Shown: positions 16,044-26,655, counted from the first letter of the stretch. The stretch is DNA of 32,000 bases from Nostoc sp. NOS(2021) (GCF_017115025.1 NZ_JABXKM010000093.1:7508-39507); one strand, 5' to 3'. Notes: a model not told the origin generated them from the letters alone. Program-made: numbers and translations.

Positions 16044-18017
16044 CTACGCACCTTCGCGCAATTTATCCAACACGCTTCTATCTTCTAAGGTCGAAGTATC
16101 CCCAGATATCTCTTGTCCCGCAGCCAGATTCCGCAGCAATCGGCGCATAATCTTACCCGATCGCGTTTTGGGCAAAGCGTCTGTAAAGCGAATTTCTCCC
16201 GGACGCGCGATCGCACCAATTTCTTTGACAACGTGCTGCTTGAGTTCTCTACTCAGTTCCTCACTTGCCTGATAAGTGCCTTCTAAAGTCACAAAAGCAA
16301 CTACTTCTTCACCCTTAAGTTCATCAGGTTTACCCACTACCGCCGCTTCTGCAACCGCTGGATGTGAAACTAAGGCTGATTCTACTTCCATTGTACCGAG
16401 TCGATGCCCTGAGACATTCAGTACATCATCCACACGACCCATTACCCAGAAGTAGCCGTCTTCATCAAGTCTTGCCCCATCACCAGCAAAGTAAATATAG
16501 TTACCATCTTTGGGCGGAATGTGTTCCCAATAGGTGCGGCGGAAACGTTCTGGATCGCCGTACACTGTCCGCATCATTCCTGGCCACGGATGTCGCACCG
16601 CTAGATAACCGCCTTCATTATTGGGTACGGTGTTTCCTTCTAAATCCACGACATCTGCGATAATTCCGGGGAAGGGAAGAGTTGCCGAACCGGGTTTGGT
16701 GGGAATTGCTCCTGGTAGCGGTGTAATCATGATACCGCCGGTTTCCGTTTGCCACCAAGTATCAACAATTGGACAACGTTCGCCACCAATTACTTTGTGA
16801 TACCACATCCAAGCTTCTGGGTTAATCGGTTCGCCGACGGTTCCCAGCAAACGCAACGAAGACAGGTTTCGCGCATTCGGATGTTGTTCTCCCATCTTAA
16901 TAAATGCCCGAATTGCCGTAGGTGCAGTATAAAAAATATTAACGCCGTATTTTTCAATTACATCCCAGAAACAGCCAGGATTAGAAGCACGGGGCGCACC
17001 TTCATACATCAACGTTGTGGCACCATTGGAAAGGGGGCCGTAGACAATATAGCTGTGTCCCGTAATCCAACCTACATCGGCGGTACACCAATATACATCT
17101 GTATCTTGGAGGTCGAATATCCACTTGCTGGTCATGTGGGTATATAAATTATAACCAGCAGTTGTATGTACTACACCCTTCGGTTTGCCGGTGCTGCCAG
17201 AAGTGTAGAGGACAAACAGCATATCTTCGCTGTCCATTGGTTCGGCGGGACAATCGGCTGATGCACCCTTTTGCAAATCATGCCACCAATGATCGCGTCC
17301 GCCCAACTGCATATAAGTTTCTTGTCCGGTGCGCTTGACAACTAGGACATTTTCTACACTGGGAACAGCACCATCAGCTAAGGCTTTATCTACCTGTTCC
17401 TTGAGAGGAACGATCGCATCTTTCCGCCAACCACCATCAGCCGTGATTACCAGTTTAGCTTTAACATCAATTAAGCGATCGCGCAAAGCTTCGGCACTAA
17501 AACCAGCAAATACTACACTGTGGGGTGCGCCAATTCTGGCACAAGCTAACATGGCGATCGCAGCTTCGGGAATCATCGGTAGATAAATACCGACGCGATC
17601 GCCTTTTTGTACACCCAGTTGCTTCAATACATTGGCAAACTGGCAAACTTCCCGATGCAGTTGGGCATAAGTGAGGGTACGCGAATCACCTGGTTCTCCT
17701 TCCCAAATCAATGCTGCTTTATTTTTGCGCCAAGTAGTGAGATGTCTGTCAAGGCAGTTGTAAGAAATATTAATTTTACCGCCAACAAACCACTTAGCAA
17801 AAGGTGGTTGCCAATCTAATACTGTATCCCATTTTTGGAACCATTCTAATTCTGTTCCAGCCAAATCTGCCCAAAATTGCTGCGGATCGGCTTTGGACTT
17901 AGCATAGAGACGCTGATAGTCATCCAGGCTTTTAATATGGGCTTTCTGTGAGAATTCCGAGGCAGGATGAAATAAGCGGTTCTCTTGCAGGATTGATTCT
18001 ATAGTTGGTTGAGACAT
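16044..18017 (-). CDS. acs: Acetyl-CoA synthetase (AMP-forming)
   Basis: A 657-aa ORF with [45 protein letters not shown] and the C-terminal [12 protein letters not shown] motifs. Confidence 0.97.
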
Positions 18018-18256: not shown

Positions 18257-18348
18257 AGGACTTACGCAGAGACTACGATTTTACGTCATTACGAGCGAAG
18301 CGAAGTAATCGCAAAGGCTTAGTTTTTCGTCACGAGTGCGTAAGTCCT
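18257..18348. repeat. MITE-like element with 12-bp terminal inverted repeats
   Basis: The ends aggacttacgca (18257-18268) and tgcgtaagtcct (18337-18348) are perfect inverted repeats. The interior carries the common Nostoc gtcattacgagcgaagcgaagtaatc hairpin. Confidence 0.6.
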
Positions 18349-18444: not shown

Positions 18445-19089
18445 ATGACACTCACAGTCGAAGCTAGCAGCCTATCTCTCAACGATGTTCATCGCTTTCT
18501 CAAACTAGAAAAGCTTTCCAATGGTTCATTTGCAGATTTCTTAAGGCTAGAACCACTTTCTGAGTTTGAACAGCAGGATTTATTGCGAATCAGAAACGAC
18601 TTTGAACGTTACTCAAGCGCAGGGAAAATTTCTGAAGGTTTAGTTAAATTTATAACAATTGCACCATTAATGCGGTTAGCTGGGTTTTACGATGTGCCGA
18701 TTCGGTTGACAATGGAAGATAGCATTGCGATCGCCATCGAAGATGAAGACAGAAGAATTACTGGGCGGATGGATATTCTAGCAATCAACAGTCCTCAAAG
18801 TAATATTGCGCCGCCATTTTGGGTTGTAGTGATTGAAACGAAAAATAGTGCGATCGAAGTGGGTGAGGGTTTACCTCAATTACTCACTTATGCTTTTAAA
18901 AGTTTAGATCAACAACCATCTGTTTGGGGACTGGTAACTAACGGACTGCGTTATCAATTTGTTTGTTTAAGACATGAACAGCAGCCAACTTATCAGTTAA
19001 TGCCATTATTAAGTCTGAATGAATCTCCAGGTGCAATCGAGTTATTACAAGTTTGCAAAGCTATCTGCAAGTTACCGAATTTTCAGTAA
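18445..19089 (+). CDS. Standalone PD-(D/E)xK nuclease-fold protein (HsdR N-terminal-domain-like)
   Basis: The layout is SEGLVKFITIAPLMRLAGF...GRMDILAI...FWVVVIETKNS...GLPQLLTYA...VWGLVTNGLRYQF. This gives D...E-x-K catalytic spacing and a TNG...F tail, as in HsdR_N-type domains. Confidence 0.65.
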   Translation: MTLTVEASSLSLNDVHRFLKLEKLSNGSFADFLRLEPLSEFEQQDLLRIRNDFERYSSAGKISEGLVKFITIAPLMRLAGFYDVPIRLTMEDSIAIAIEDEDRRITGRMDILAINSPQSNIAPPFWVVVIETKNSAIEVGEGLPQLLTYAFKSLDQQPSVWGLVTNGLRYQFVCLRHEQQPTYQLMPLLSLNESPGAIELLQVCKAICKLPNFQ

Positions 19090-19118
19090 AATGAACGTAA
19101 ATCGCGGAGCGATCGCTG

Positions 19119-19889
19119 ATGTCTGAACTTGCTACCCTAGAATTCATCTCTGATGAAATTTCAGAGGACGAAGTTATTTTTCCTCCTGGCGATATACTGA
19201 GTCACGAACCACCCTTGGAAAGTGACCTGCATCGTGACCAAATCGATTTGCTGATTCGCATACTTAAATTATGGTGGCGATCGCGGCAAGATTTTTATGC
19301 TTCTGGCAATTTGACGATTTACTACAGTCCTAACCAAAAGAAATCAGAAGATTTCCGTGGCCCAGACTTTTTTGTAGTTTTGGGAAGTCAGAAAAAAGAC
19401 CGTAAGAGTTGGGTAGTTTGGCAAGAAGAGGGCAAATATCCGAATCTGATTGTGGAAATTTTGTCAAGTTCAACAGCAACAGTTGATAAAGGCTTAAAAA
19501 AACAAGTTTATCAGGATACCTTCCGTACACCAGATTATTTCTGGTTTGACCCTGTAACAATGGAACTTCAGGGATTTCATTTAGTAGATGGTAAGTATCA
19601 AGAAATTCAACCCACCACTGATGGACGTTTGTGGAGTCAGCAGTTAGAACTTTATTTGGGAGTTTATGAAGGTAAATTAAGATTCTTCACTACTGAAAAT
19701 CAATTGATATTATCATCTGAAGAACTGGCCCAACAAGCAGAAGAACGCGCCCAACAAGCAGAAGAACGCGCCCAACAAGCAGAAGAATGCGCCCAACAAG
19801 CAGAAGAACGCGCCCAACAAGCAGAACAAGAAATTGCTCGACTGCGGGAGGTTTTACGTATACAGGGCATCGTTCTAGAGAATATTTAA
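19119..19889 (+). CDS. Uma2 (DUF820) family PD-(D/E)xK endonuclease with a heptad-repeat tail; paralog of 10416-11243
   Basis: It has the same core as the first copy (GPDFFVVLG...KYPNLIVEILSSSTATVDKGLKK.VYQDTFRTPDYFWFDP). The tail is (AQQAEER)x4-5 followed by IARLREVL. Confidence 0.85.
   Translation: MSELATLEFISDEISEDEVIFPPGDILSHEPPLESDLHRDQIDLLIRILKLWWRSRQDFYASGNLTIYYSPNQKKSEDFRGPDFFVVLGSQKKDRKSWVVWQEEGKYPNLIVEILSSSTATVDKGLKKQVYQDTFRTPDYFWFDPVTMELQGFHLVDGKYQEIQPTTDGRLWSQQLELYLGVYEGKLRFFTTENQLILSSEELAQQAEERAQQAEERAQQAEECAQQAEERAQQAEQEIARLREVLRIQGIVLENI
19729..19828 (+). repeat. 21-bp tandem repeat, about 4.75 copies, in frame inside the second Uma2 gene
   Basis: The unit gcccaacaagcagaagaacgc is repeated head to tail. 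One copy has a single c-to-t change (gaatgc). Confidence 0.95.
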
Positions 19890-19981
19890 TGACATCAGGA
19901 AATTAAGTAAAGACATTTTCAAGTTAAGATTTAGTTATAAATGTGTGAAAAAAGCGTTATCTTCTGAAAGTAGGGCATCGT

Positions 19982-20671
19982 TTGCAAGCTAAAGAGATTA
20001 AGGAGAAGCTAAAGTCCCTTATCGAGCAAGCCTCCTCGATAGATCATAATTTAGCGAGAAGATTAGATGAAATCAATCGTTGGGTAAAGAATATTAAGCC
20101 AGGTTCCCTGACTGCTAAACCTTTTGTGATTGCTTTTCTGCTAGAGGTGATTACGGATTCTACAATTTGGCTGATAATCAAATCCTTACCTTCAGAAGAA
20201 GAACAAAAAGCAAAGTTCGAGCAAATGACGCCGATTGAGAGATATTGGTATGCTTATCTCTTTCCCAGATGGTTCAATGCAAGTGACTCCAAGTTTTATA
20301 TTTGGAAACAAAAATTAATGGCAGGCGAATTTAATCAGCTTGATGATGATATCATTAAATTAATCGCTCAAGATATTGTCAGTCGTGAAGGTAGTTTTTG
20401 GCAGCGTTATATTGCCGACCTTTCTATGGCAACAGATTTAATTGTTAGTCGTAACAATCAACCACTGTGCATTCAAGTTACCAGTGTTAGTGAAGAACTT
20501 AATTACCAAAAGTACCAAGCTTGGCAAAATACACTGCGATCGTGGGAAATCGAGAGAGGATTGTTTTTAAGTTACAATCCCAAGGATGCTAATTTTGTTA
20601 ACCAGTTAGTCAACGTGGCCCTGTATAACAGTGATTACCTTTCTGGTGGCAAATATTTAAAATTTTCGTGA
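19982..20671 (+). CDS. Hypothetical protein, 229 aa (TTG start as listed)
   Basis: A long clean ORF. Its stop overlaps the start of the next ORF (GTGA at 20668-20671), which suggests translational coupling. No motif was recognised. Confidence 0.55.
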   Translation: MQAKEIKEKLKSLIEQASSIDHNLARRLDEINRWVKNIKPGSLTAKPFVIAFLLEVITDSTIWLIIKSLPSEEEQKAKFEQMTPIERYWYAYLFPRWFNASDSKFYIWKQKLMAGEFNQLDDDIIKLIAQDIVSREGSFWQRYIADLSMATDLIVSRNNQPLCIQVTSVSEELNYQKYQAWQNTLRSWEIERGLFLSYNPKDANFVNQLVNVALYNSDYLSGGKYLKFS

Positions 20672-21183
20672 ATTTTGTGGAATTTGATATTCCAGATTTG
20701 GATTATAGCCTAAATACTTACCTGCTAATTACAGCTTTTATGGTTAATAAAAGAGAAATTCACAGCTGCAACAATCAAGTAGATACATTTGCGGAAGCTT
20801 TAGCAACAGCCCGACAAATGCAGCAAAGCTGGCTAACTTACGGGGTTGATTTTGTCAATTTTTACGTTGAGGATGTAGATGGAGACTGGCTGGAAACGTG
20901 GGGGAATGACGAAATATTAGGTAATTTTCGATTAGATGCTATTAAAGAATTTTTGGTAAGTAATGATAGTGTAGCTGTGAAGGTAAGACAGCATTTAGGA
21001 GAGCGATCGCTATTTGATTTCGCAGTAAACTTAGAAGAATCTTGGAGAATTTCTGAAACCAATGACAGGTTATCTGTTGTGATAAACTTGTTAGCTGGTG
21101 AAGAAAATAGTATTCATACAGATGACATCAGGTTAGTGGATTTAGCAAATAGTCTGCTGGTAAAGTTGGCAGAGATTTTGTGA
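20668..21183 (+). CDS. Hypothetical, strongly acidic protein, 171 aa
   Basis: A GTG start overlaps the upstream stop by 4 nt. By my count it has about 30 D/E against about 12 K/R. No motif was recognised. Confidence 0.55.
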   Translation: MNFVEFDIPDLDYSLNTYLLITAFMVNKREIHSCNNQVDTFAEALATARQMQQSWLTYGVDFVNFYVEDVDGDWLETWGNDEILGNFRLDAIKEFLVSNDSVAVKVRQHLGERSLFDFAVNLEESWRISETNDRLSVVINLLAGEENSIHTDDIRLVDLANSLLVKLAEIL

Positions 21184-21218
21184 AATTTTTAGTTGACTTT
21201 TCACGGTATCTGGAAAGC

Positions 21219-21322
21219 CTCTCTCTAAATCTCTCTCCTAAAAGGAGAGAGACTTTGAATTCCTTCTCTTCCTTTGCGTTCTTCTCTACGAGACGCTGCG
21301 CGAATGCGTCCTTTGCGGTTCG
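21219..21322. repeat. Nostoc-type dispersed repeat with a hairpin (tctctctcctaaaaggagagaga) plus the ctctacgagacgctgcgcgaatgcg module
   Basis: It shares the ctacgagacgct.cgcgaa.gc module with 880-905. The hairpin arms are perfectly complementary. Confidence 0.6.
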
Positions 21323-21507
21323 TTAAAAAATCGACTTTGACAAAGGAGTTAAGCCTTAACCCAAGCGTATTGGGATATAGGCGATCGCTTTTCCAGATAA
21401 GCTTTAATAATCTTTTAGATGTGCAATCTTTATCACTGTTAGTAGTAAGGGTTGATCCTGAATCTGGTAGATAATACGGTATTCACCCAAACGAACCTTA
21501 TACAGAT

Positions 21508-21795
21508 GTAATGAATGCTGAAGCAATTGTTACTCACGTTCGAGCATTCATAAGAAGTGTTTAAGCATTTGTTGCAAACGTTCAATTTTTTATTATCAAT
21601 GTTGCAGCAATAGTTACTCACCTTGAAGCATTTATAAGAAACGTTTAAGTATTTGTTGCAAACGTTCATTTTTTTTGATGAATGCTGAAGCAATTGTTAC
21701 TCACGTTGAAGCATTTATAAGAAACGTTTAAGCATTTGTTGCAAACGTTCAATTTTTTTGATGAATGCTGAAGCGATTGTTACTCACGTTGAAAG
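21508..21795 (+). repeat. Tandem array of an 83-84 bp unit, about 3.4 copies, 124 bp upstream of the NLR-like operon
   Basis: Units start near 21510, 21594, 21677 and 21760 (the last is partial). The consensus is gatgaatgctgaagcaattgttactcacgttgaagcatttataagaaacgtttaagcatttgttgcaaacgttcaattttttt. Each unit ends in a weak hairpin (aaacgttt-13 nt-aaacgtt) followed by a T6-8 run. Confidence 0.9.
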
Positions 21796-21918
21796 TTTTC
21801 CCTTATAACGTACACTCGACTTTCAGGGGATAAATTGGATTAGCCTGTATCTCTCTGGAATATAAACAGCTGTTATTGTATCCATCAGTGAAGATGTCGC
21901 TGGATAAGGTAGGATATT

Positions 21919-22335
21919 TTGGAACCAATTACAGCTAGTGCGATCGCAACTCTGGCTTTTACCAAAGCATTTGAGAAAACCGTCGAGAAATTTACTGAAG
22001 CAGCCCTTGCTAAAATAGATGAGCTGCGAAAAAAGATTTGGGGTAAGTTACGGGGAAATCTGAAAGCAGAAACAGCCCTACTTGCTGCTGAAAAAGGCTC
22101 TAAACCAGATTTAGACCGAGTTGCTGCTTACTTGCAGATAATTTTACATGAAGAACCGGAGTTTGCTAAAGAAGTAGAAACACTGGCTCGTGAAATTGAG
22201 GCTGGTAAGATAGTAGACAAAAGCACTATGAGCCAAATCAATCAAGACAATGCCAAGGGATGGCAAAATAAGATTGACGGTGGAACAGTTTATCAAGGCG
22301 ATATTAACATTCATCATGCACCCCCCAATTCTTGA
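21919..22335 (+). CDS. Small helical protein (138 aa) with a C-terminal G/N/Q-rich motif shared with the downstream NLR; candidate Bell/HeLo-like effector
   Basis: TTG start, preceded by aaggtagga. Residues 1-100 look all-helical, with a hydrophobic first helix MEPITASAIATLAFTKAF. Residues 104-132 (MSQINQDNAKGWQNKIDGGTVYQGDINIH) repeat at the N-terminus of the next gene. Confidence 0.7.
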   Translation: MEPITASAIATLAFTKAFEKTVEKFTEAALAKIDELRKKIWGKLRGNLKAETALLAAEKGSKPDLDRVAAYLQIILHEEPEFAKEVETLAREIEAGKIVDKSTMSQINQDNAKGWQNKIDGGTVYQGDINIHHAPPNS

Positions 22336-22346
22336 ATTGAGCCATC

Positions 22347-24953
22347 ATGAACCAAAGCAACCAGGATAATGCCAGGGGATGGGAAACTGAGGTAAAGGGT
22401 GGAACAGTTTATCAAGGCGATATTCGTATCAACAATTACCCGACTCAGCACTTACAGTCAACTTCTCCAAATAATATTCCTTACCGGGGTGTCGCCAACT
22501 TTGTCGGGCGGGATGAGAAACTTGTAGAAGTGCATAAAAAATTGCTGCAAAATGACAGCGCAGCAATTTTGGCTGTGGCTGGTATGGGGGGAATGGGTAA
22601 AACTGAACTGGCGACACAATACGGACACCGCTACAAAGTCAATTATCCTGGTGGGCTTTGCTGGTTAGATGCCAGAAAACTAGATTTAGCAGCAGAGATT
22701 GTGGAGTTTGCTAAGTTTTACATGAAACTGGAAGTACCGCAAAACTTATTGACTTCCCAGGAACAAGCAAAATGGTGCTGGCATAATTGGCAACCACAAA
22801 CAGGACTAGTCTTGGTAGTATTGGACAATGTTGACGATGTGACTAACTGGAAAAATTCTCGCCAAGTACTACCAACAGATAACCGCTTCCGTATATTGAT
22901 GACAACTCGGTTGCGAAATATCCATTCAACCGTTCAACAGATAACTTTGGATGAACTCTCACCAAACGATGCTTTGAATTTGTTGACAACTTTGTTGGGT
23001 GAGAATGATAGGCGGGTGCAACGGGAACCACAAACGGCAGCAAATTTATGTAAATGGCTGGGATATCTGCCTTTAGGTTTGCAATTAGTCGGCGCGTATT
23101 TGGCAGAAGATCCAAATTTGTCTTTGGCAGAGATTTTACAACAATTACCAGCCCAAGAAAAGTCTCAATTGGAAGCTGTATTTGAATTAAGCTGGCAACA
23201 ACTCGATTTTATGACACAGTGTGTCGGTGAGTTGTTGAGTTTATTTGCCCCAGATATCATTCCTTGGCAAATAGTTGAATCTGTCAGTCAGCAGCTAAAT
23301 TGGGCAAAGGCAGATGTTGACAAGGCGAGAAAGCAACTTTATCAACGCCATTTAATTCAAAGCGTAGCAGAAGGAGAAAGTTGTTATAAAATTCATCCTT
23401 TAATTAGGGAGTTTTTGCAAGGGAAATTAGTAGGGTTAAACACAGCCGATGACTTCAAAAAAGCCTTTGCCGCAGCATTAGTAGAAATTGCTCAGAAAAT
23501 ACCTAAATTTCTTACCCTTGAGGATATCAAGTCAGTGCAACTGTCAATTCCTCATTTAAATGAGGTGGCACAAAATCTGATTGATATTGTGGAGGATAAA
23601 AATTTATTCTGGGTTTTCAATGGCTTGGGCAGATTCTATAAAGGACAAGGTTTGTATACCTTAGCAGCACCTTGGTATGAGCAAGGATTATCAACGGTGC
23701 AAACCCGTTTGGGAGAAGCACATCCCGATGTTGCCACCAGCCTGAACAACCTGGCATTACTCTACGATTCTCAAGGACGCTACGACCAAGCCGAACCGCT
23801 GTATTTCCAAGCTTTAGAACTAACAAAACGTCTGTCTGGTGAAAATCATCCCAATGTTGCCAGCAACCTGAACAACCTGGCATTACTCTATTATCATCAA
23901 GGGCGTTACTCTGAAGCTGAACCGTTATCGCAACAAGCAATAGAACTAGATAAGCGATTTTTAGGAGAAGAAAATCCTGAGATTGCTACAGATTTTCATA
24001 ATTTGGGATTAATATATCGCGCTCAAGGACGTTACTCTGAAGCCGAATCATTGTTTTTACAATCATTAGAACTTAAAGAGCGCATACTGCAAGAAGCTCA
24101 TCCCTTATTAACAGATACTATTTACGCTCTTGGCTATATGTACAGAGAACAAGGATGCTACAAGGAGGCAGAACCTTTATGTTTAAAAGCATTAGAGCTT
24201 GATAAATATCTATTGGGAGATAACCATCCTAATGTTGCTGAAAGTCTCAATAATTTAGCAGAAATGTATCGTGTAATGGGACGTTACAGCGAAGCAAAAC
24301 CGCTATATCTACAAGCTTTAGAACTTTATAAACGCCTGTTGGGAGATGCACACCCCTTTGTTGCCACCAGCCTGAACAACCTGGCAAATCTCTACAATTC
24401 TCAAGGACGCTACGACCAAGCCGAACCCCTGTATCTCCAAGCTTTAGAACTGAGAAAACGCCTGCTGGGAGAAGCACATCCCTTTGTTGCCACCAGCCTG
24501 AACAACCTGGCAAATCTCTACAATTCTCAAGGACGCTACGACCAAGCCGAACCCCTGTATCTCCAAGCTTTAGAACTGAGAAAACGCCTGCTGGGAGAAG
24601 CACATCCCTTTGTTGCCACCAGCCTGAACAACCTGGCAAATCTCTACAATTCTCAAGGACGCTACGACCAAGCCGAACCCCTGTATCTCCAAGCTTTAGA
24701 ACTGAGAAAACGCCTGCTGGGAGAAGCACATCCCTTTGTTGCCACCAGCCTGAACAACCTGGCAAATCTCTACAATTCTCAAGGACGCTACGACCAAGCC
24801 GAGCCCCTGTATCTGCAAGCTTTAGAAATTCGTCAGCAGGTGTTTGGGGTAAATCATCCCAATACGGTTACTGTTCGGCAAAATCTAGAAAATCTTCAAG
24901 CTCAAAAGAGTGATAACTCTAAAGTTAAGAACAATACTAACAATTCTTGGTGA
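22347..24953 (+). CDS. NLR-like STAND ATPase with an N-terminal short motif, an NB-ARC domain and TPR (KLC-type) repeats
   Basis: It has Walker A AGMGGMGKTELA (nt 22581-22604), Walker B LVLVVLDNVDD, RILMTTR, and LGYLPLGLQLVG (GLPL motif). About eleven 42-aa TPR units follow (H/NP.VA.SLNNLA.LY..QGRY..AEPLY.QALEL). The ATG lies 11 nt after the upstream stop. Confidence 0.92.
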   Translation: MNQSNQDNARGWETEVKGGTVYQGDIRINNYPTQHLQSTSPNNIPYRGVANFVGRDEKLVEVHKKLLQNDSAAILAVAGMGGMGKTELATQYGHRYKVNYPGGLCWLDARKLDLAAEIVEFAKFYMKLEVPQNLLTSQEQAKWCWHNWQPQTGLVLVVLDNVDDVTNWKNSRQVLPTDNRFRILMTTRLRNIHSTVQQITLDELSPNDALNLLTTLLGENDRRVQREPQTAANLCKWLGYLPLGLQLVGAYLAEDPNLSLAEILQQLPAQEKSQLEAVFELSWQQLDFMTQCVGELLSLFAPDIIPWQIVESVSQQLNWAKADVDKARKQLYQRHLIQSVAEGESCYKIHPLIREFLQGKLVGLNTADDFKKAFAAALVEIAQKIPKFLTLEDIKSVQLSIPHLNEVAQNLIDIVEDKNLFWVFNGLGRFYKGQGLYTLAAPWYEQGLSTVQTRLGEAHPDVATSLNNLALLYDSQGRYDQAEPLYFQALELTKRLSGENHPNVASNLNNLALLYYHQGRYSEAEPLSQQAIELDKRFLGEENPEIATDFHNLGLIYRAQGRYSEAESLFLQSLELKERILQEAHPLLTDTIYALGYMYREQGCYKEAEPLCLKALELDKYLLGDNHPNVAESLNNLAEMYRVMGRYSEAKPLYLQALELYKRLLGDAHPFVATSLNNLANLYNSQGRYDQAEPLYLQALELRKRLLGEAHPFVATSLNNLANLYNSQGRYDQAEPLYLQALELRKRLLGEAHPFVATSLNNLANLYNSQGRYDQAEPLYLQALELRKRLLGEAHPFVATSLNNLANLYNSQGRYDQAEPLYLQALEIRQQVFGVNHPNTVTVRQNLENLQAQKSDNSKVKNNTNNSW
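24353..24802 (+). repeat. Perfect 126-bp tandem repeats (about 3.6 copies) encoding identical 42-aa TPR units
   Basis: Copies begin at 24361, 24487, 24613 and 24739 and are base-for-base identical as far as I can read. They diverge only after 24802. Confidence 0.95.
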
Positions 24954-25026
24954 CAGAAACTTTTAGGGTTATTTGATTAAAGCAAAAGTTGTAATCATAG
25001 AAGACAGTTAGCGCTCTCTTCTCATC

Positions 25027-25152
25027 CTACTCTGAAAACAGCACCTCTAAATCGCGGCAGCCACTCACTACCTGCAAAACTTTAATCCCCTCTAGAATTG
25101 GGCGGTAAAATATTAAATAATAATCTTTAGGGTTCGCAATTTTCACCAATTA
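25027..25152 (-). pseudogene. RelE/ParE-family toxin, 3' remnant
   Basis: The minus strand reads LVKIANPKDYYLIFYRPILEGIKVLQVVSGCRDLEVLFSE*, which matches the ParE C-terminus pattern (Y.I.YR......I.V..V.HG..D....F). The upstream part is replaced by repeat DNA. Confidence 0.55.
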
Positions 25153-25215
25153 CAGCAGTTTTCATGTATTTAGACCACAATTATGAGACCTAACCCCCAG
25201 CCCCTTCCCTACAAG

Positions 25216-25368
25216 CAGGGTGGTTTCATACAAGCAGAGAAAAACTAAAACTGGGTTTCAAAGCCTCTCCCCCCGTGGGGGAGAGGAATGGAAGCGGGGT
25301 AAAAGCCATGCCACAAAACGAGGAATCAAGACTTATGTATTTTTCTTTTTTCGTATGAAACCACCCTG
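25216..25368. repeat. 153-bp MITE-like element with 16-bp terminal inverted repeats, flanked by a 20-bp direct duplication
   Basis: The ends cagggtggtttcatac (25216-25231) and gtatgaaaccaccctg (25353-25368) are perfect inverted repeats. The flanks cccagccccttccctacaag occur at 25196-25215 and 25369-25388. Confidence 0.65.
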
Positions 25369-25766
25369 CCCAGCCCCTTCCCTACAAGGGAAGGGGAGAA
25401 AATCAAAGCCTTTCTCCTACAAGGAGAGAGGTTTGGAGAGAGGTCTATTTGTGGTTCATTTACCTGAAAATCGCTGTAAATAAGATTGCTATGGAAACTA
25501 CTGATGCACAATAATGGCATCTCGACTTATTTCAATATAGGAATGCTGCTTAAACAATTCTGTATGAAGATGCACATAAGAAAACCCCCCTGTAGTCCCC
25601 CCTTGGTAAGCTACCGTGTATACACAAGTCGAATTACCCCCCTTAATCCCCCCTTATTAAGGGGGGAAACAAGAAATCTAGTTCCCTCCCCTAAGAAAGG
25701 CGATCGCCCTCTGCCAAGAAGCTGCGATCGCCTTTCCCTAAAGCCCCATTCTGGGAGACAATTACA

Positions 25767-26066
25767 ATGATGACACAAGTACAAAAGTTTGTAAAAAATC
25801 AGAAGTTCGCCCAATCAGAATTACAACAGTACTTAGATGGCGAAAACTTAAATACACCCATCCTTAATCAATCTTCTGAAAATCAATTACCGAAAAGAGA
25901 ACCGATAAAACATCTATTAATAGGTTCTCCAAAAGCAGTTACTAGCACAATTCACTATCTGCAAGTGATTGGCTACGCCAGCATCGGCGATTGGAGTCCG
26001 CTACTACCAACCGCCAACCCAGGCGAGGTAATGAGTATTTTAATCCGTCAGATTTTAATGCAATAG
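25767..26066 (+). CDS. Small hypothetical protein, 99 aa, cyanobacterial-type
   Basis: A clean ORF with an ATG start. The C-terminal part, HLLIGSPKAVTSTIHYLQVIGYASIGDWSPLLPTANPGEVMSIL, resembles a family I recall from other cyanobacteria. The function is unknown. Confidence 0.6.
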   Translation: MMTQVQKFVKNQKFAQSELQQYLDGENLNTPILNQSSENQLPKREPIKHLLIGSPKAVTSTIHYLQVIGYASIGDWSPLLPTANPGEVMSILIRQILMQ

Positions 26067-26168
26067 GACATATCAATATGGTGCGTTGTCGTGTAGCGCA
26101 ACGCACCCTACTTGAACTTCATCTATCGTAGGGGTTTAGCACATTGCTAAACCCAAAAAGCAGTGATT

Positions 26169-26262
26169 TTAATCAGAAAATAGCGCCTCTAAATCTTGGT
26201 AGCCACTCACTACCCGCACAACTTCAATCCCCTCTACAATTGGGCGATAAAATATCAAAAAA
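26169..26262 (-). pseudogene. Second RelE/ParE-family toxin 3' remnant; paralog of 25027-25152
   Basis: The minus strand reads FLIFYRPIVEGIEVVRVVSGYQDLEALFSD*. It is roughly 85 percent identical in DNA to the first remnant over the shared part. It is truncated at 26263 by a MITE-like repeat. Confidence 0.55.
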
Positions 26263-26265
26263 ATT

Positions 26266-26336
26266 GTAGGTTGGGTGGAGGCTTTGCGTAACCCAACATC
26301 CTGATATATGTTGGGTTGCGCTCCGCTCCACCCAAC
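26266..26336. repeat. MITE-like palindromic repeat (gtaggttgggtggag ... ctccacccaac)
   Basis: It contains nested inverted repeats: gtaggttgggtggag / ctccacccaac, and gcgtaacccaacat / atgttgggttgcgc. Confidence 0.6.
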
Positions 26337-26655
26337 AAAAGTCTACGTCTAATGCACTATTAAAGCCTTGAGGGTCCACTACGTGCATTTCAAAAATCAA
26401 ATACTAGTCCTATATTCTAATTCGAGATCCGAAATGACGGCAGTCCATTGCGATCGCATCAAGCTAAATACTATACTTTTAGTGTATGGAATAGTACCAA
26501 AAATATCCTAATGGTACGGCGATCGCACACATTCAACCCCCTTCAAAATGCACCACAACCACGTTAAGCTGAATAGAGTAGCAATTTATTGCGCTTTTTA
26601 ACATGAAAATCTCTGTGACTGTCAAATTTTAATTTTTTCTGCTTGAGAAACCCGG

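Follow-up and report, generated by a model that had tools for sequence, protein, structure and literature searches.

A linked pair of cyanobacterial genes encodes a predicted nuclease-fold protein and a small acidic partner

Four closely spaced open reading frames (ORFs) at positions 18445-21183 of a 32,000-nucleotide (nt) stretch of Nostoc sp. NOS(2021) DNA (NZ_JABXKM010000093.1:7508-39507, hereafter the window) raise the question of whether the last two, ORF3 and ORF4, are parts of a defence island together with the nuclease genes beside them or constitute a system of their own. A first reading made from the sequence alone (the sequence-only reading) had described two nuclease-fold proteins followed by an orphan pair, and all four frames are indeed present on one strand in the six-frame ORF list from which the window ORFs were taken. 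We find that ORF3 and ORF4 form an autonomous, obligately linked two-gene module specific to cyanobacteria. The genes that enter the argument first are as follows (lengths in amino acids, aa).

16044-18017, minus strand: acetyl-CoA synthetase gene (acs), upstream of ORF3 and divergent from it
18445-19089, plus strand: ORF1, 214 aa, canonical PD-(D/E)xK protein
19119-19889, plus strand: ORF2, 256 aa, Uma2-family PD-(D/E)xK protein
19982-20671, plus strand: ORF3, 229 aa, TTG start
20668-21183, plus strand: ORF4 as an open frame, 171 aa, GTG start; the corrected gene occupies 20740-21183

ORF3 and ORF4 are an obligately linked pair

Counts for Nostoc given here refer to one genome per species and to the best 80 of 274 stretches with an ORF3 relative, all of which are from Nostoc or were binned with it. 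ORF3 and ORF4 are adjacent in all 80 of these loci. Homologues of the two genes are also adjacent in Anabaena PCC 7108, Richelia sinica, Trichodesmium and Dapis, as well as in diverse metagenomic and plasmid loci that include two cyanobacterial plasmids. In PLSDB, the partner module is confined to two plasmids, the same two on which a full-length homologue of ORF3 is found. The pair therefore keeps its synteny over large evolutionary distances, which bears out the earlier suggestion that the orphan genes are a two-gene module, and its members are adjacent, co-directional and linked in the manner of type II toxin-antitoxin modules.

The chromosomal setting of the pair is conserved as well. In Anabaena PCC 7108 and Richelia sinica, the gene order is acs (minus strand), ORF3 and ORF4, with no nuclease genes between, and the Richelia locus goes on with TerC, ndk and speA, reproducing the backbone of the window without its insertions. 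Trichodesmium, Dapis and a further cyanobacterial metagenome-assembled genome (L087) carry acs (minus strand) followed by an ORF3 homologue of 231-232 aa and a partner of 67-83 aa, such that the divergent acs/ORF3 arrangement is kept in Nostocales and in these three lineages. Gene order seldom persists over such distance in cyanobacteria.

The remaining genes of the cluster are less constant. Uma2 is found in 74 of the 80 Nostoc loci, and ORF1 and acs in 66 each; the NLR-like gene that lies downstream in the window, together with the 138-aa gene preceding it, is found in 14. ORF1 and Uma2 are absent from the interval between acs and ORF3 in Anabaena, Richelia, Trichodesmium and Dapis, and ORF1 is missing at loci L081, L083, L091 and L098. 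ORF1, Uma2 and the NLR gene are thus non-obligate companions that represent separate later insertions on either side of the pair, with ORF1 in the acs-ORF3 interval being an insertion specific to the genus Nostoc, the one genus in which Uma2, too, is found at this place. The possibility that the pair travels with nucleases or an NLR as a four-gene unit does not survive these comparisons.

Selection on the locus was measured as the median pairwise ratio of nonsynonymous to synonymous substitution rates (dN/dS) against the Nostoc loci. The value is 0.065 for acs, 0.11 for ORF3, 0.17 for ORF1, 0.18 for Uma2 and 0.25 for ORF4, and the ORF3 protein is 92-99% identical among Nostoc species. The copy of the pair in Nostocales and Oscillatoriales is a fixed, core-like locus divergent from acs that is vertically inherited and under purifying selection. 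Its position beside acs, under purifying selection near that of acs itself, speaks against the defence or conflict island that the sequence-only reading had envisaged.

Some signals of expression are conserved together with the genes. The TTG start of ORF3 is kept in 88 of 95 loci, Trichodesmium included, and an alignment of upstream regions reveals one further element.

19936-19942, plus strand: -10-like TATAAAT, about 39 nt upstream of the ORF3 start, kept in Nostoc, Anabaena and Richelia

Because this element is conserved, the pair may have its own promoter, as the alignment suggests. Separately, co-regulation of acs and the divergent ORF3 is possible.

The ORF4 product starts at a conserved methionine

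Translational coupling of ORF3 and ORF4 had been proposed from a GTGA stop/start overlap at 20668-20671. These letters are present in the sequence, but neither a coding N-terminal extension nor coupling is upheld by comparison with homologues. Met25 of the 171-aa frame (ATG at 20740) is invariant in all homologues in the alignments, an ATG aligned with this position is found in 80 of 80 Nostoc loci, and the frame upstream of it is closed by a stop before the ORF3 stop in 57 of them. Furthermore, the spacer between the genes varies from 64 to 69 nt across the 80 loci, and the upstream frame is therefore not kept. Intergenic gaps of 44-75 nt are found in other genera, and one metagenomic pair overlaps by 11 nt.

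20668-20739, plus strand: non-coding spacer; the 24-codon N-terminal extension read here is an ORF-calling artefact

In databases, homologues of the 171-aa ORF mostly have an annotated length of 146-147 aa, and Met25 is where the orthologues from Anabaena (59% identical) and Richelia (55% identical) start. Given the invariant Met25, the closed upstream frames and the variable spacer length, the true ORF4 product is 147 aa long, with an isoelectric point of 4.4. The earlier estimate of a net charge of roughly -18 is right for the 171-aa ORF; the corrected product is still acidic, with a net charge of -14.

ORF3 is predicted to adopt a variant nuclease fold

When 1.84 billion representative proteins were searched exhaustively with HMMER, just 108 ORF3-family clusters (50% identity) were found, the members of which are mostly about 230-245 aa long. 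All organism-named members are cyanobacterial, examples being Gloeobacter Gll3491 and the proteins of Waterburya and of a Chondrocystis plasmid. Searches with the single ORF3 sequence gave no family match in Pfam, NCBIfam, PADLOC or PHROGs, nor did Pfam searches with 31 family members or a comparison of the ORF3 profile with PDB sequences. Weak matches to PAZ_2 (E 0.0097) and Tn7_TnsA-like_N (E 0.014) in the family scans were taken as noise. None of the PADLOC-DB v2 models matches ORF3 or ORF4 at E ≤ 1, and none of the phage records searched carries the ORF3 family.

An AlphaFold2 model of ORF3 computed from a 31-sequence alignment has a predicted local distance difference test score (pLDDT) of 94.4. 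Eight helices (aa 3-134) are followed by an alpha/beta domain (aa 138-228), from which we delimit two predicted domains.

ORF3 aa 1-134 (nt 19982-20383): N-terminal all-helical domain
ORF3 aa 135-229: C-terminal domain with a predicted PD-(D/E)xK fold

When this model was compared with PDB structures by Foldseek, the top matches were Hjc Holliday-junction resolvases (E 0.03, probability 0.99, template-modelling score to the target 0.46), followed by restriction enzymes, Can2, R2 endonuclease and XisH. Named matches in BFVD are mostly PD-(D/E)xK, restriction-endonuclease and VRR-NUC proteins, with a best E of 0.009, and nearly all of the meaningful matches in PDB and BFVD are nucleases of the PD-(D/E)xK kind. 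The fold suggested for the C-terminal domain thus agrees across the two databases, each E-value being weak alone.

The most conserved ORF3 residues (D146, M149, T151, D152, C163, Q165, T167, K177 and W181) lie in this domain and include the following.

D146: in the short helix before beta2
D152: at the start of beta2, directly before strand 153-156; nearly invariant and placed as the Asp of the PD-(D/E)xK superfamily
C163, Q165 and T167: in beta3 (strand 162-168)
K177 and W181: in helix alpha2; K177 is invariant

The canonical (D/E)xK of beta3 is absent from ORF3, since this strand instead carries C163-x-Q165-x-T167. Migration of catalytic residues has been described in the superfamily: in EcoO109I ('EPD-XXK') an acidic residue precedes the PD Asp, and in Pa4535 ('PD-EXX-K') the Lys has moved into helix alpha2 (PMC3424549). 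By analogy with these published cases, D146 and K177 are possible substitutes for the (D/E)xK residues, and an active site in ORF3 is plausible. The model therefore describes ORF3 as a protein with a predicted restriction-endonuclease-like PD-(D/E)xK fold and a variant motif D146/D152/Q165-x-T167/K177. The sequence-only reading had recognized no motif in the orphan pair, which for the 229-aa protein is superseded by the AlphaFold2 model and the Foldseek matches.

We also considered ORF3 as a paralogue of the neighbouring nucleases. This was rejected, as hhalign detected no relation of the ORF3 family to Uma2 or ORF1; the layouts 'E-I-L-S...K' of Uma2 and 'Q-V-T-S...K' of ORF3 are parallel by eye only.

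The conserved part of ORF4 is a short acidic module

At all distant loci except that of Gloeobacter, an ORF of 65-83 aa stands straight after the ORF3 homologue. These small partners share the N-terminal segment of ORF4, which reads ...L..G.D.V..YVEDV.GDWLE.WG.(D/E)n, and residues G35, E44, W50, L51 and W54 are invariant in the partner family. Two parts of ORF4 can be told apart on this basis.

ORF4 aa 13-58 (nt 20776-20913): conserved N-module of about 45 aa, a helix plus YVEDVDGDWLETWGNDE
ORF4 aa 62-146: C-terminal helical bundle, specific to Nostocales

A profile of five short partners retrieved 402 proteins. The best 120 of these 402 are mostly 65-80 aa long, and the organism-named proteins among them come from Trichodesmium, Okeania, Hydrocoleum, Dapis and Microcoleaceae. 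Short-form partners carry a net charge of -3 to -15 in their C-terminal half (-8 or lower in seven of eight), and in all tabulated short partners but one the charge is gathered in that half. AlphaFold2 models the N-module alone as a long helix with a disordered acidic tail (pLDDT 47-73) and predicts the C-terminal extension of ORF4 confidently as a helical bundle (pLDDT 82-92).

The partner has no match in Pfam, NCBIfam, PADLOC or PHROGs when searched with ORF4, in Pfam when searched with 41 partner-family members, or among PDB sequences when searched with the partner profile. All Foldseek matches of the ORF4 model have E > 1 and are to bromodomains or phycocyanin, which is helical noise. The name DUF4253, which NCBI gives to one ORF4 homologue (P0156), was rejected because Pfam DUF4253 matches neither P0156 nor ORF4 at E ≤ 10 and none of the 41 members at E ≤ 1.

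Three forms of the partner are seen: the bare protein of 65-83 aa, the form with a helical bundle in Nostocales, and a fusion to DUF1822. The fusion is found on the Anabaena sp. 90 plasmid pANA01, where a 218-aa protein and then a 1890-aa CHAT protein come after an ORF3 homologue (54% identical). The first 55 or so residues of the 218-aa protein are the N-module and the rest is the C-terminal half of DUF1822 (1.5e-17), a domain reported from caspase-centred conflict neighbourhoods (PMC8195603). The conserved part of the partner is thus a short, portable, acidic module.

Mobile copies and rearrangements of the pair

Outside its fixed position, the family has a mobile subclade on plasmids and in varied contexts. 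An 18-kb Chondrocystis plasmid carries a member beside ParA, ParD-like and integrase genes; another copy stands beside NikA, relaxase and ParA genes, and yet another beside genes for a DUF87 ATPase and a DNA methyltransferase. Three different genomic contexts contain ORF3 homologues of 92-95% identity. The mobile plasmid copies point to an origin of the pair as an addiction module.

Two rearranged loci were also observed. One (L089, 171-2025) contains two full pairs of ORF3-like protein and partner in tandem, of 239 and 72 aa and of 232 and 74 aa; the large proteins are 45% identical, and conserved residues are missing from the first copy, where R stands in place of Q165, for example. The other is a locus adjacent to glutamate synthase, where the ORF3 homologue present in one genome (L095, 4244-4954) is replaced in a second (L099, 4207-4967) by tacA and a GNAT gene (TacT-like). 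The second genome keeps the small partner gene, with 90% nucleotide identity to the first, and there the partner is followed by a duplicated fragment of the glutamate synthase GXGXG domain.

A proposed regulator of a nuclease-fold protein

What might such a pair do? The reading that we favour, to which we assign a probability of roughly 50% on the basis of sequence comparison and structural models, is that the dedicated acidic partner ORF4 regulates or inhibits the nuclease-fold protein ORF3, and that the pair had its origin in a plasmid addiction-type module. Comparisons and models show the linkage of the two genes, the fold of ORF3, the conservation of the pair and the modularity of the partner. 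Binding, inhibition and nuclease activity are properties that we infer for the pair, in which ORF4 plausibly acts as an inhibitor or adaptor.

Under this proposal, the amphipathic helix and the acidic, Trp-rich tail GDWLExWG(D/E)n of ORF4 would constitute a docking N-module that binds ORF3 and folds upon binding. The docked module would mask or regulate the nucleic-acid-binding or catalytic surface of ORF3, much as a nuclease inhibitor or an antitoxin does, and the weak but conserved TTG start would hold ORF3 levels low. One copy of the plasmid addiction module would have become fixed divergently beside acs in Nostocales and Oscillatoriales, and the Nostocales partner would later have gained its extra helical domain. 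Traits of the family that resemble those of addiction modules are the copies beside ParA, ParD-like and relaxase genes, the varied contexts, the retention of the partner after loss of ORF3 and the conserved TTG.

Several observations weigh against this proposal. ORF3 may be catalytically inactive because QxT replaces the (D/E)xK of beta3; the best Foldseek E-values (0.03 for PDB and 0.009 for BFVD) are weak, and no sequence-profile link of ORF3 to nuclease families was found with Pfam, PDB sequences or hhalign. No helix-turn-helix, ribbon-helix-helix or AbrB DNA-binding domain was detected in the partner by Pfam searches of 41 sequences or by PDB sequence and fold comparisons. Gloeobacter has an ORF3 homologue without a recognizable partner. 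Placing the large gene first is atypical for toxin-antitoxin systems. Finally, the pair is strictly vertically inherited in Nostocales and is under strong purifying selection there, which is not what one usually sees in toxin-antitoxin or defence genes and suits a cellular role equally well.

Alternative explanations

Such a cellular role defines the alternative that survives best, which we regard as possible though on the unlikely side. ORF3 would be a structure-specific nuclease or nucleic-acid-processing factor in recombination, repair or chromosome maintenance, with ORF4 as its regulatory or targeting subunit, and the plasmid copies would serve maintenance, for example multimer resolution. 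This idea gains from the Hjc resolvases being the best structural matches of ORF3, from the fixation of the locus beside acs across Nostocales and Oscillatoriales, from the low dN/dS of ORF3 and the presence of the pair in every retrieved Nostoc locus, and from the partition, integrase and relaxase genes that adjoin the plasmid copies. It sits less well with a tiny family that is patchy outside those two orders, a mobile subclade in unrelated contexts, the loss of the ORF3 homologue at one locus and a non-canonical catalytic motif.

A more speculative idea, which we hold only tentatively, is that the N-module and ORF3 are an unrecognized heterologous docking pair in which ORF3, as a sensor or effector, would recruit various outputs (none, a helical bundle, or DUF1822 and a CHAT caspase), one copy having been domesticated beside acs since the split of Nostocales and Oscillatoriales.

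It is doubtful, in turn, that the pair is a purely non-catalytic adaptor for signalling or conflict, in which an inactivated PD-(D/E)xK protein, ORF3, serves as scaffold or sensor and is coupled to various effectors by the N-module. The QxT in beta3 would fit such a role, as would the variable C termini of the partners and the fusion of the N-module to half of DUF1822, a domain reported from caspase-centred conflict neighbourhoods, directly upstream of the 1890-aa CHAT protein. The fusion is a single example, however; most partners are bare proteins with no effector near, and the conserved D146, D152 and K177 resemble a retained active site.

A four-gene defence system or island made up of ORF1, Uma2 and a translationally coupled ORF3 and ORF4, possibly with the NLR and bounded by miniature inverted-repeat transposable element (MITE)-like repeats, is very improbable and largely excluded by the synteny data: its genes share a strand, are closely spaced, form a block conserved within Nostoc and include two with PADLOC matches (ORF1 and Uma2), but other genera lack ORF1 and Uma2 between acs and ORF3, the NLR accompanies a minority of loci, ORF3 has an apparent conserved promoter-like element of its own, the overlap at GTGA is artefactual, the supposed bounding repeats do not match each other as a pair, neither ORF3 nor ORF4 matches PADLOC, and ORF3 has no profile similarity to the neighbouring nucleases.

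Relation to known systems

With the PD-(D/E)xK superfamily, including archaeal Hjc, ORF3 shares a predicted alpha-beta-beta-beta-alpha-beta core with Asp at the N terminus of beta2, and with EcoO109I and Pa4535, respectively, an acidic residue before that Asp and a Lys in the following helix. It differs from the superfamily in its Gln-x-Thr at beta3, in matching no Pfam nuclease profile and in carrying a 134-aa helical N-terminal domain.

NucA-NuiA of Anabaena and barnase-barstar are pairs of nuclease and inhibitor, and HigBA and MqsRA are type II systems in which the toxin gene comes first. The ORF3-ORF4 pair resembles these in that a nuclease-fold protein stands beside a small, very acidic, dedicated partner. 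Further likenesses to toxin-antitoxin pairs are the plasmid copies near partition genes, the duplication of the pair as a whole and the one case in which the partner outlasted the large gene. Unlike these systems, to which it has no homology, the pair includes a partner with no detectable DNA-binding domain, and its Nostocales copy is core rather than patchy.

XisH/XisI is likewise a mostly cyanobacterial pair with a PD-(D/E)xK-fold component, and XisH structures 2okf and 2inb are among the Foldseek matches of ORF3 (ranks 30 and 33). The identification of ORF3 as XisH was nevertheless rejected: these structures match only at an E of about 1, Pfam gives no match to XisH, sizes and domain architecture differ and the partner is unrelated.

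The effector-associated adaptor domains of Kaur et al. (eLife 2021, PMC8195603) are comparable in that a short portable module occurs free or fused (here to DUF1822) beside CHAT/caspase proteins. The docking proposed here differs in joining two different modules rather than two copies of one domain; moreover, there is one fusion case, and most loci with ORF3 and its partner have no effector or NTPase.

No paper describing the ORF3-ORF4 pair was found in literature searches, which were thin. The two families are absent from Pfam, NCBIfam, PADLOC and PHROGs; the general kind, a nuclease-fold protein with a small acidic partner, is known. Two protein families until now annotated as 'hypothetical' are thereby defined and linked across cyanobacteria, including Trichodesmium and Nostoc symbionts of ecological importance, and mobile and fixed versions of one module become open to comparison. 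Should the partner prove to be an inhibitor or adaptor, one could study in this compact pair how a nuclease module of the addiction type turns into a fixed core locus, and how a short docking module is put to new use, the DUF1822-CHAT fusion being an example. The island reading is also corrected: coincidental insertion placed the nuclease and NLR genes beside the pair, and it is downstream of ORF4 that the true insertion hotspot is found.

Neighbouring genes and repeats in the window

The flanks of the pair contain the following further features.

18257-18348: MITE-like small repeat with perfect 12-nt terminal inverted repeats; dispersed
21230-21252 (21224-21258), plus strand: terminator-like hairpin with a 10-bp stem, 3' of ORF4, closing the ORF3-ORF4 operon
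21919-22335: 138-aa ORF downstream of ORF4
22347-24953: NB-ARC+TPR protein (NLR) identified by Pfam, downstream of ORF4

The NLR-like module noticed earlier is thus present as an NB-ARC+TPR protein, and is followed in the window by TerC, ndk and arginine decarboxylase. In the window, ORF4 and TerC are 5473 nt apart (21184-26655), as against a distance of 366-5404 nt at other Nostocales loci. Because this distance varies, the insertion hotspot is placed after ORF4, and the NLR module is one occasional occupant of it. Beyond that module, the interval up to TerC holds just short ORFs of doubtful status (25220-26066).

The cluster had also been described as bounded by MITE-like repeats. The element at 18257-18348 does have the perfect terminal inverted repeats of such elements, but the two repeats are not a pair: the downstream one is the terminator-like hairpin, and the upstream one is dispersed, recurring at unrelated positions in three other Nostoc loci (L005, L029 and L052). 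The repeats do not delimit a mobile unit or the cluster.

The two nuclease genes were largely identified correctly at the outset. The D...ExK signature of ORF1 is readable in its sequence as GRMDIL / VIETK / TNG, and the protein matches the generic CRISPR-associated PD_DExK model of PADLOC (3.5e-8). Its PD-(D/E)xK assignment stands, but the narrower description as HsdR_N-like does not, as the score for Pfam HSDR_N_2, 14.5 bits, falls short of the cut-off of 25. The Uma2 gene starts 29 nt past the ORF1 stop, as reported, and its product matches Pfam Uma2 (PF05685 / DUF820) with 88.5 bits against a cut-off of 27 (E 4.6e-25) and the PADLOC candidate models PDC-S03. Its C-terminal (AEERAQQ)n coiled-coil repeat is encoded by a tandem array of 5.1 copies of 21 nt (19719-19826, Tandem Repeats Finder). 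This tail may vary in length, because the length of the Uma2 match differs among Nostoc loci. Searches of the window for Rfam families and tRNAs found none.

Two observations concern the region around the NLR gene, which begins 12 nt past the 138-aa ORF. The 138-aa ORF ends in 32 residues (MSQINQDNAKGWQNKIDGGTVYQGDINIHHAP) that recur, with 63% identity, as the first 32 of the NB-ARC/TPR protein (22347-22445; E 5e-14), and this shared segment could be a short adaptor module or a local duplication. Upstream of both genes, an intergenic tandem repeat of 83 nt occupies 21511-21793 (3.4 copies, 89% matches), with an inner sub-periodicity of 42 and 21 nt.

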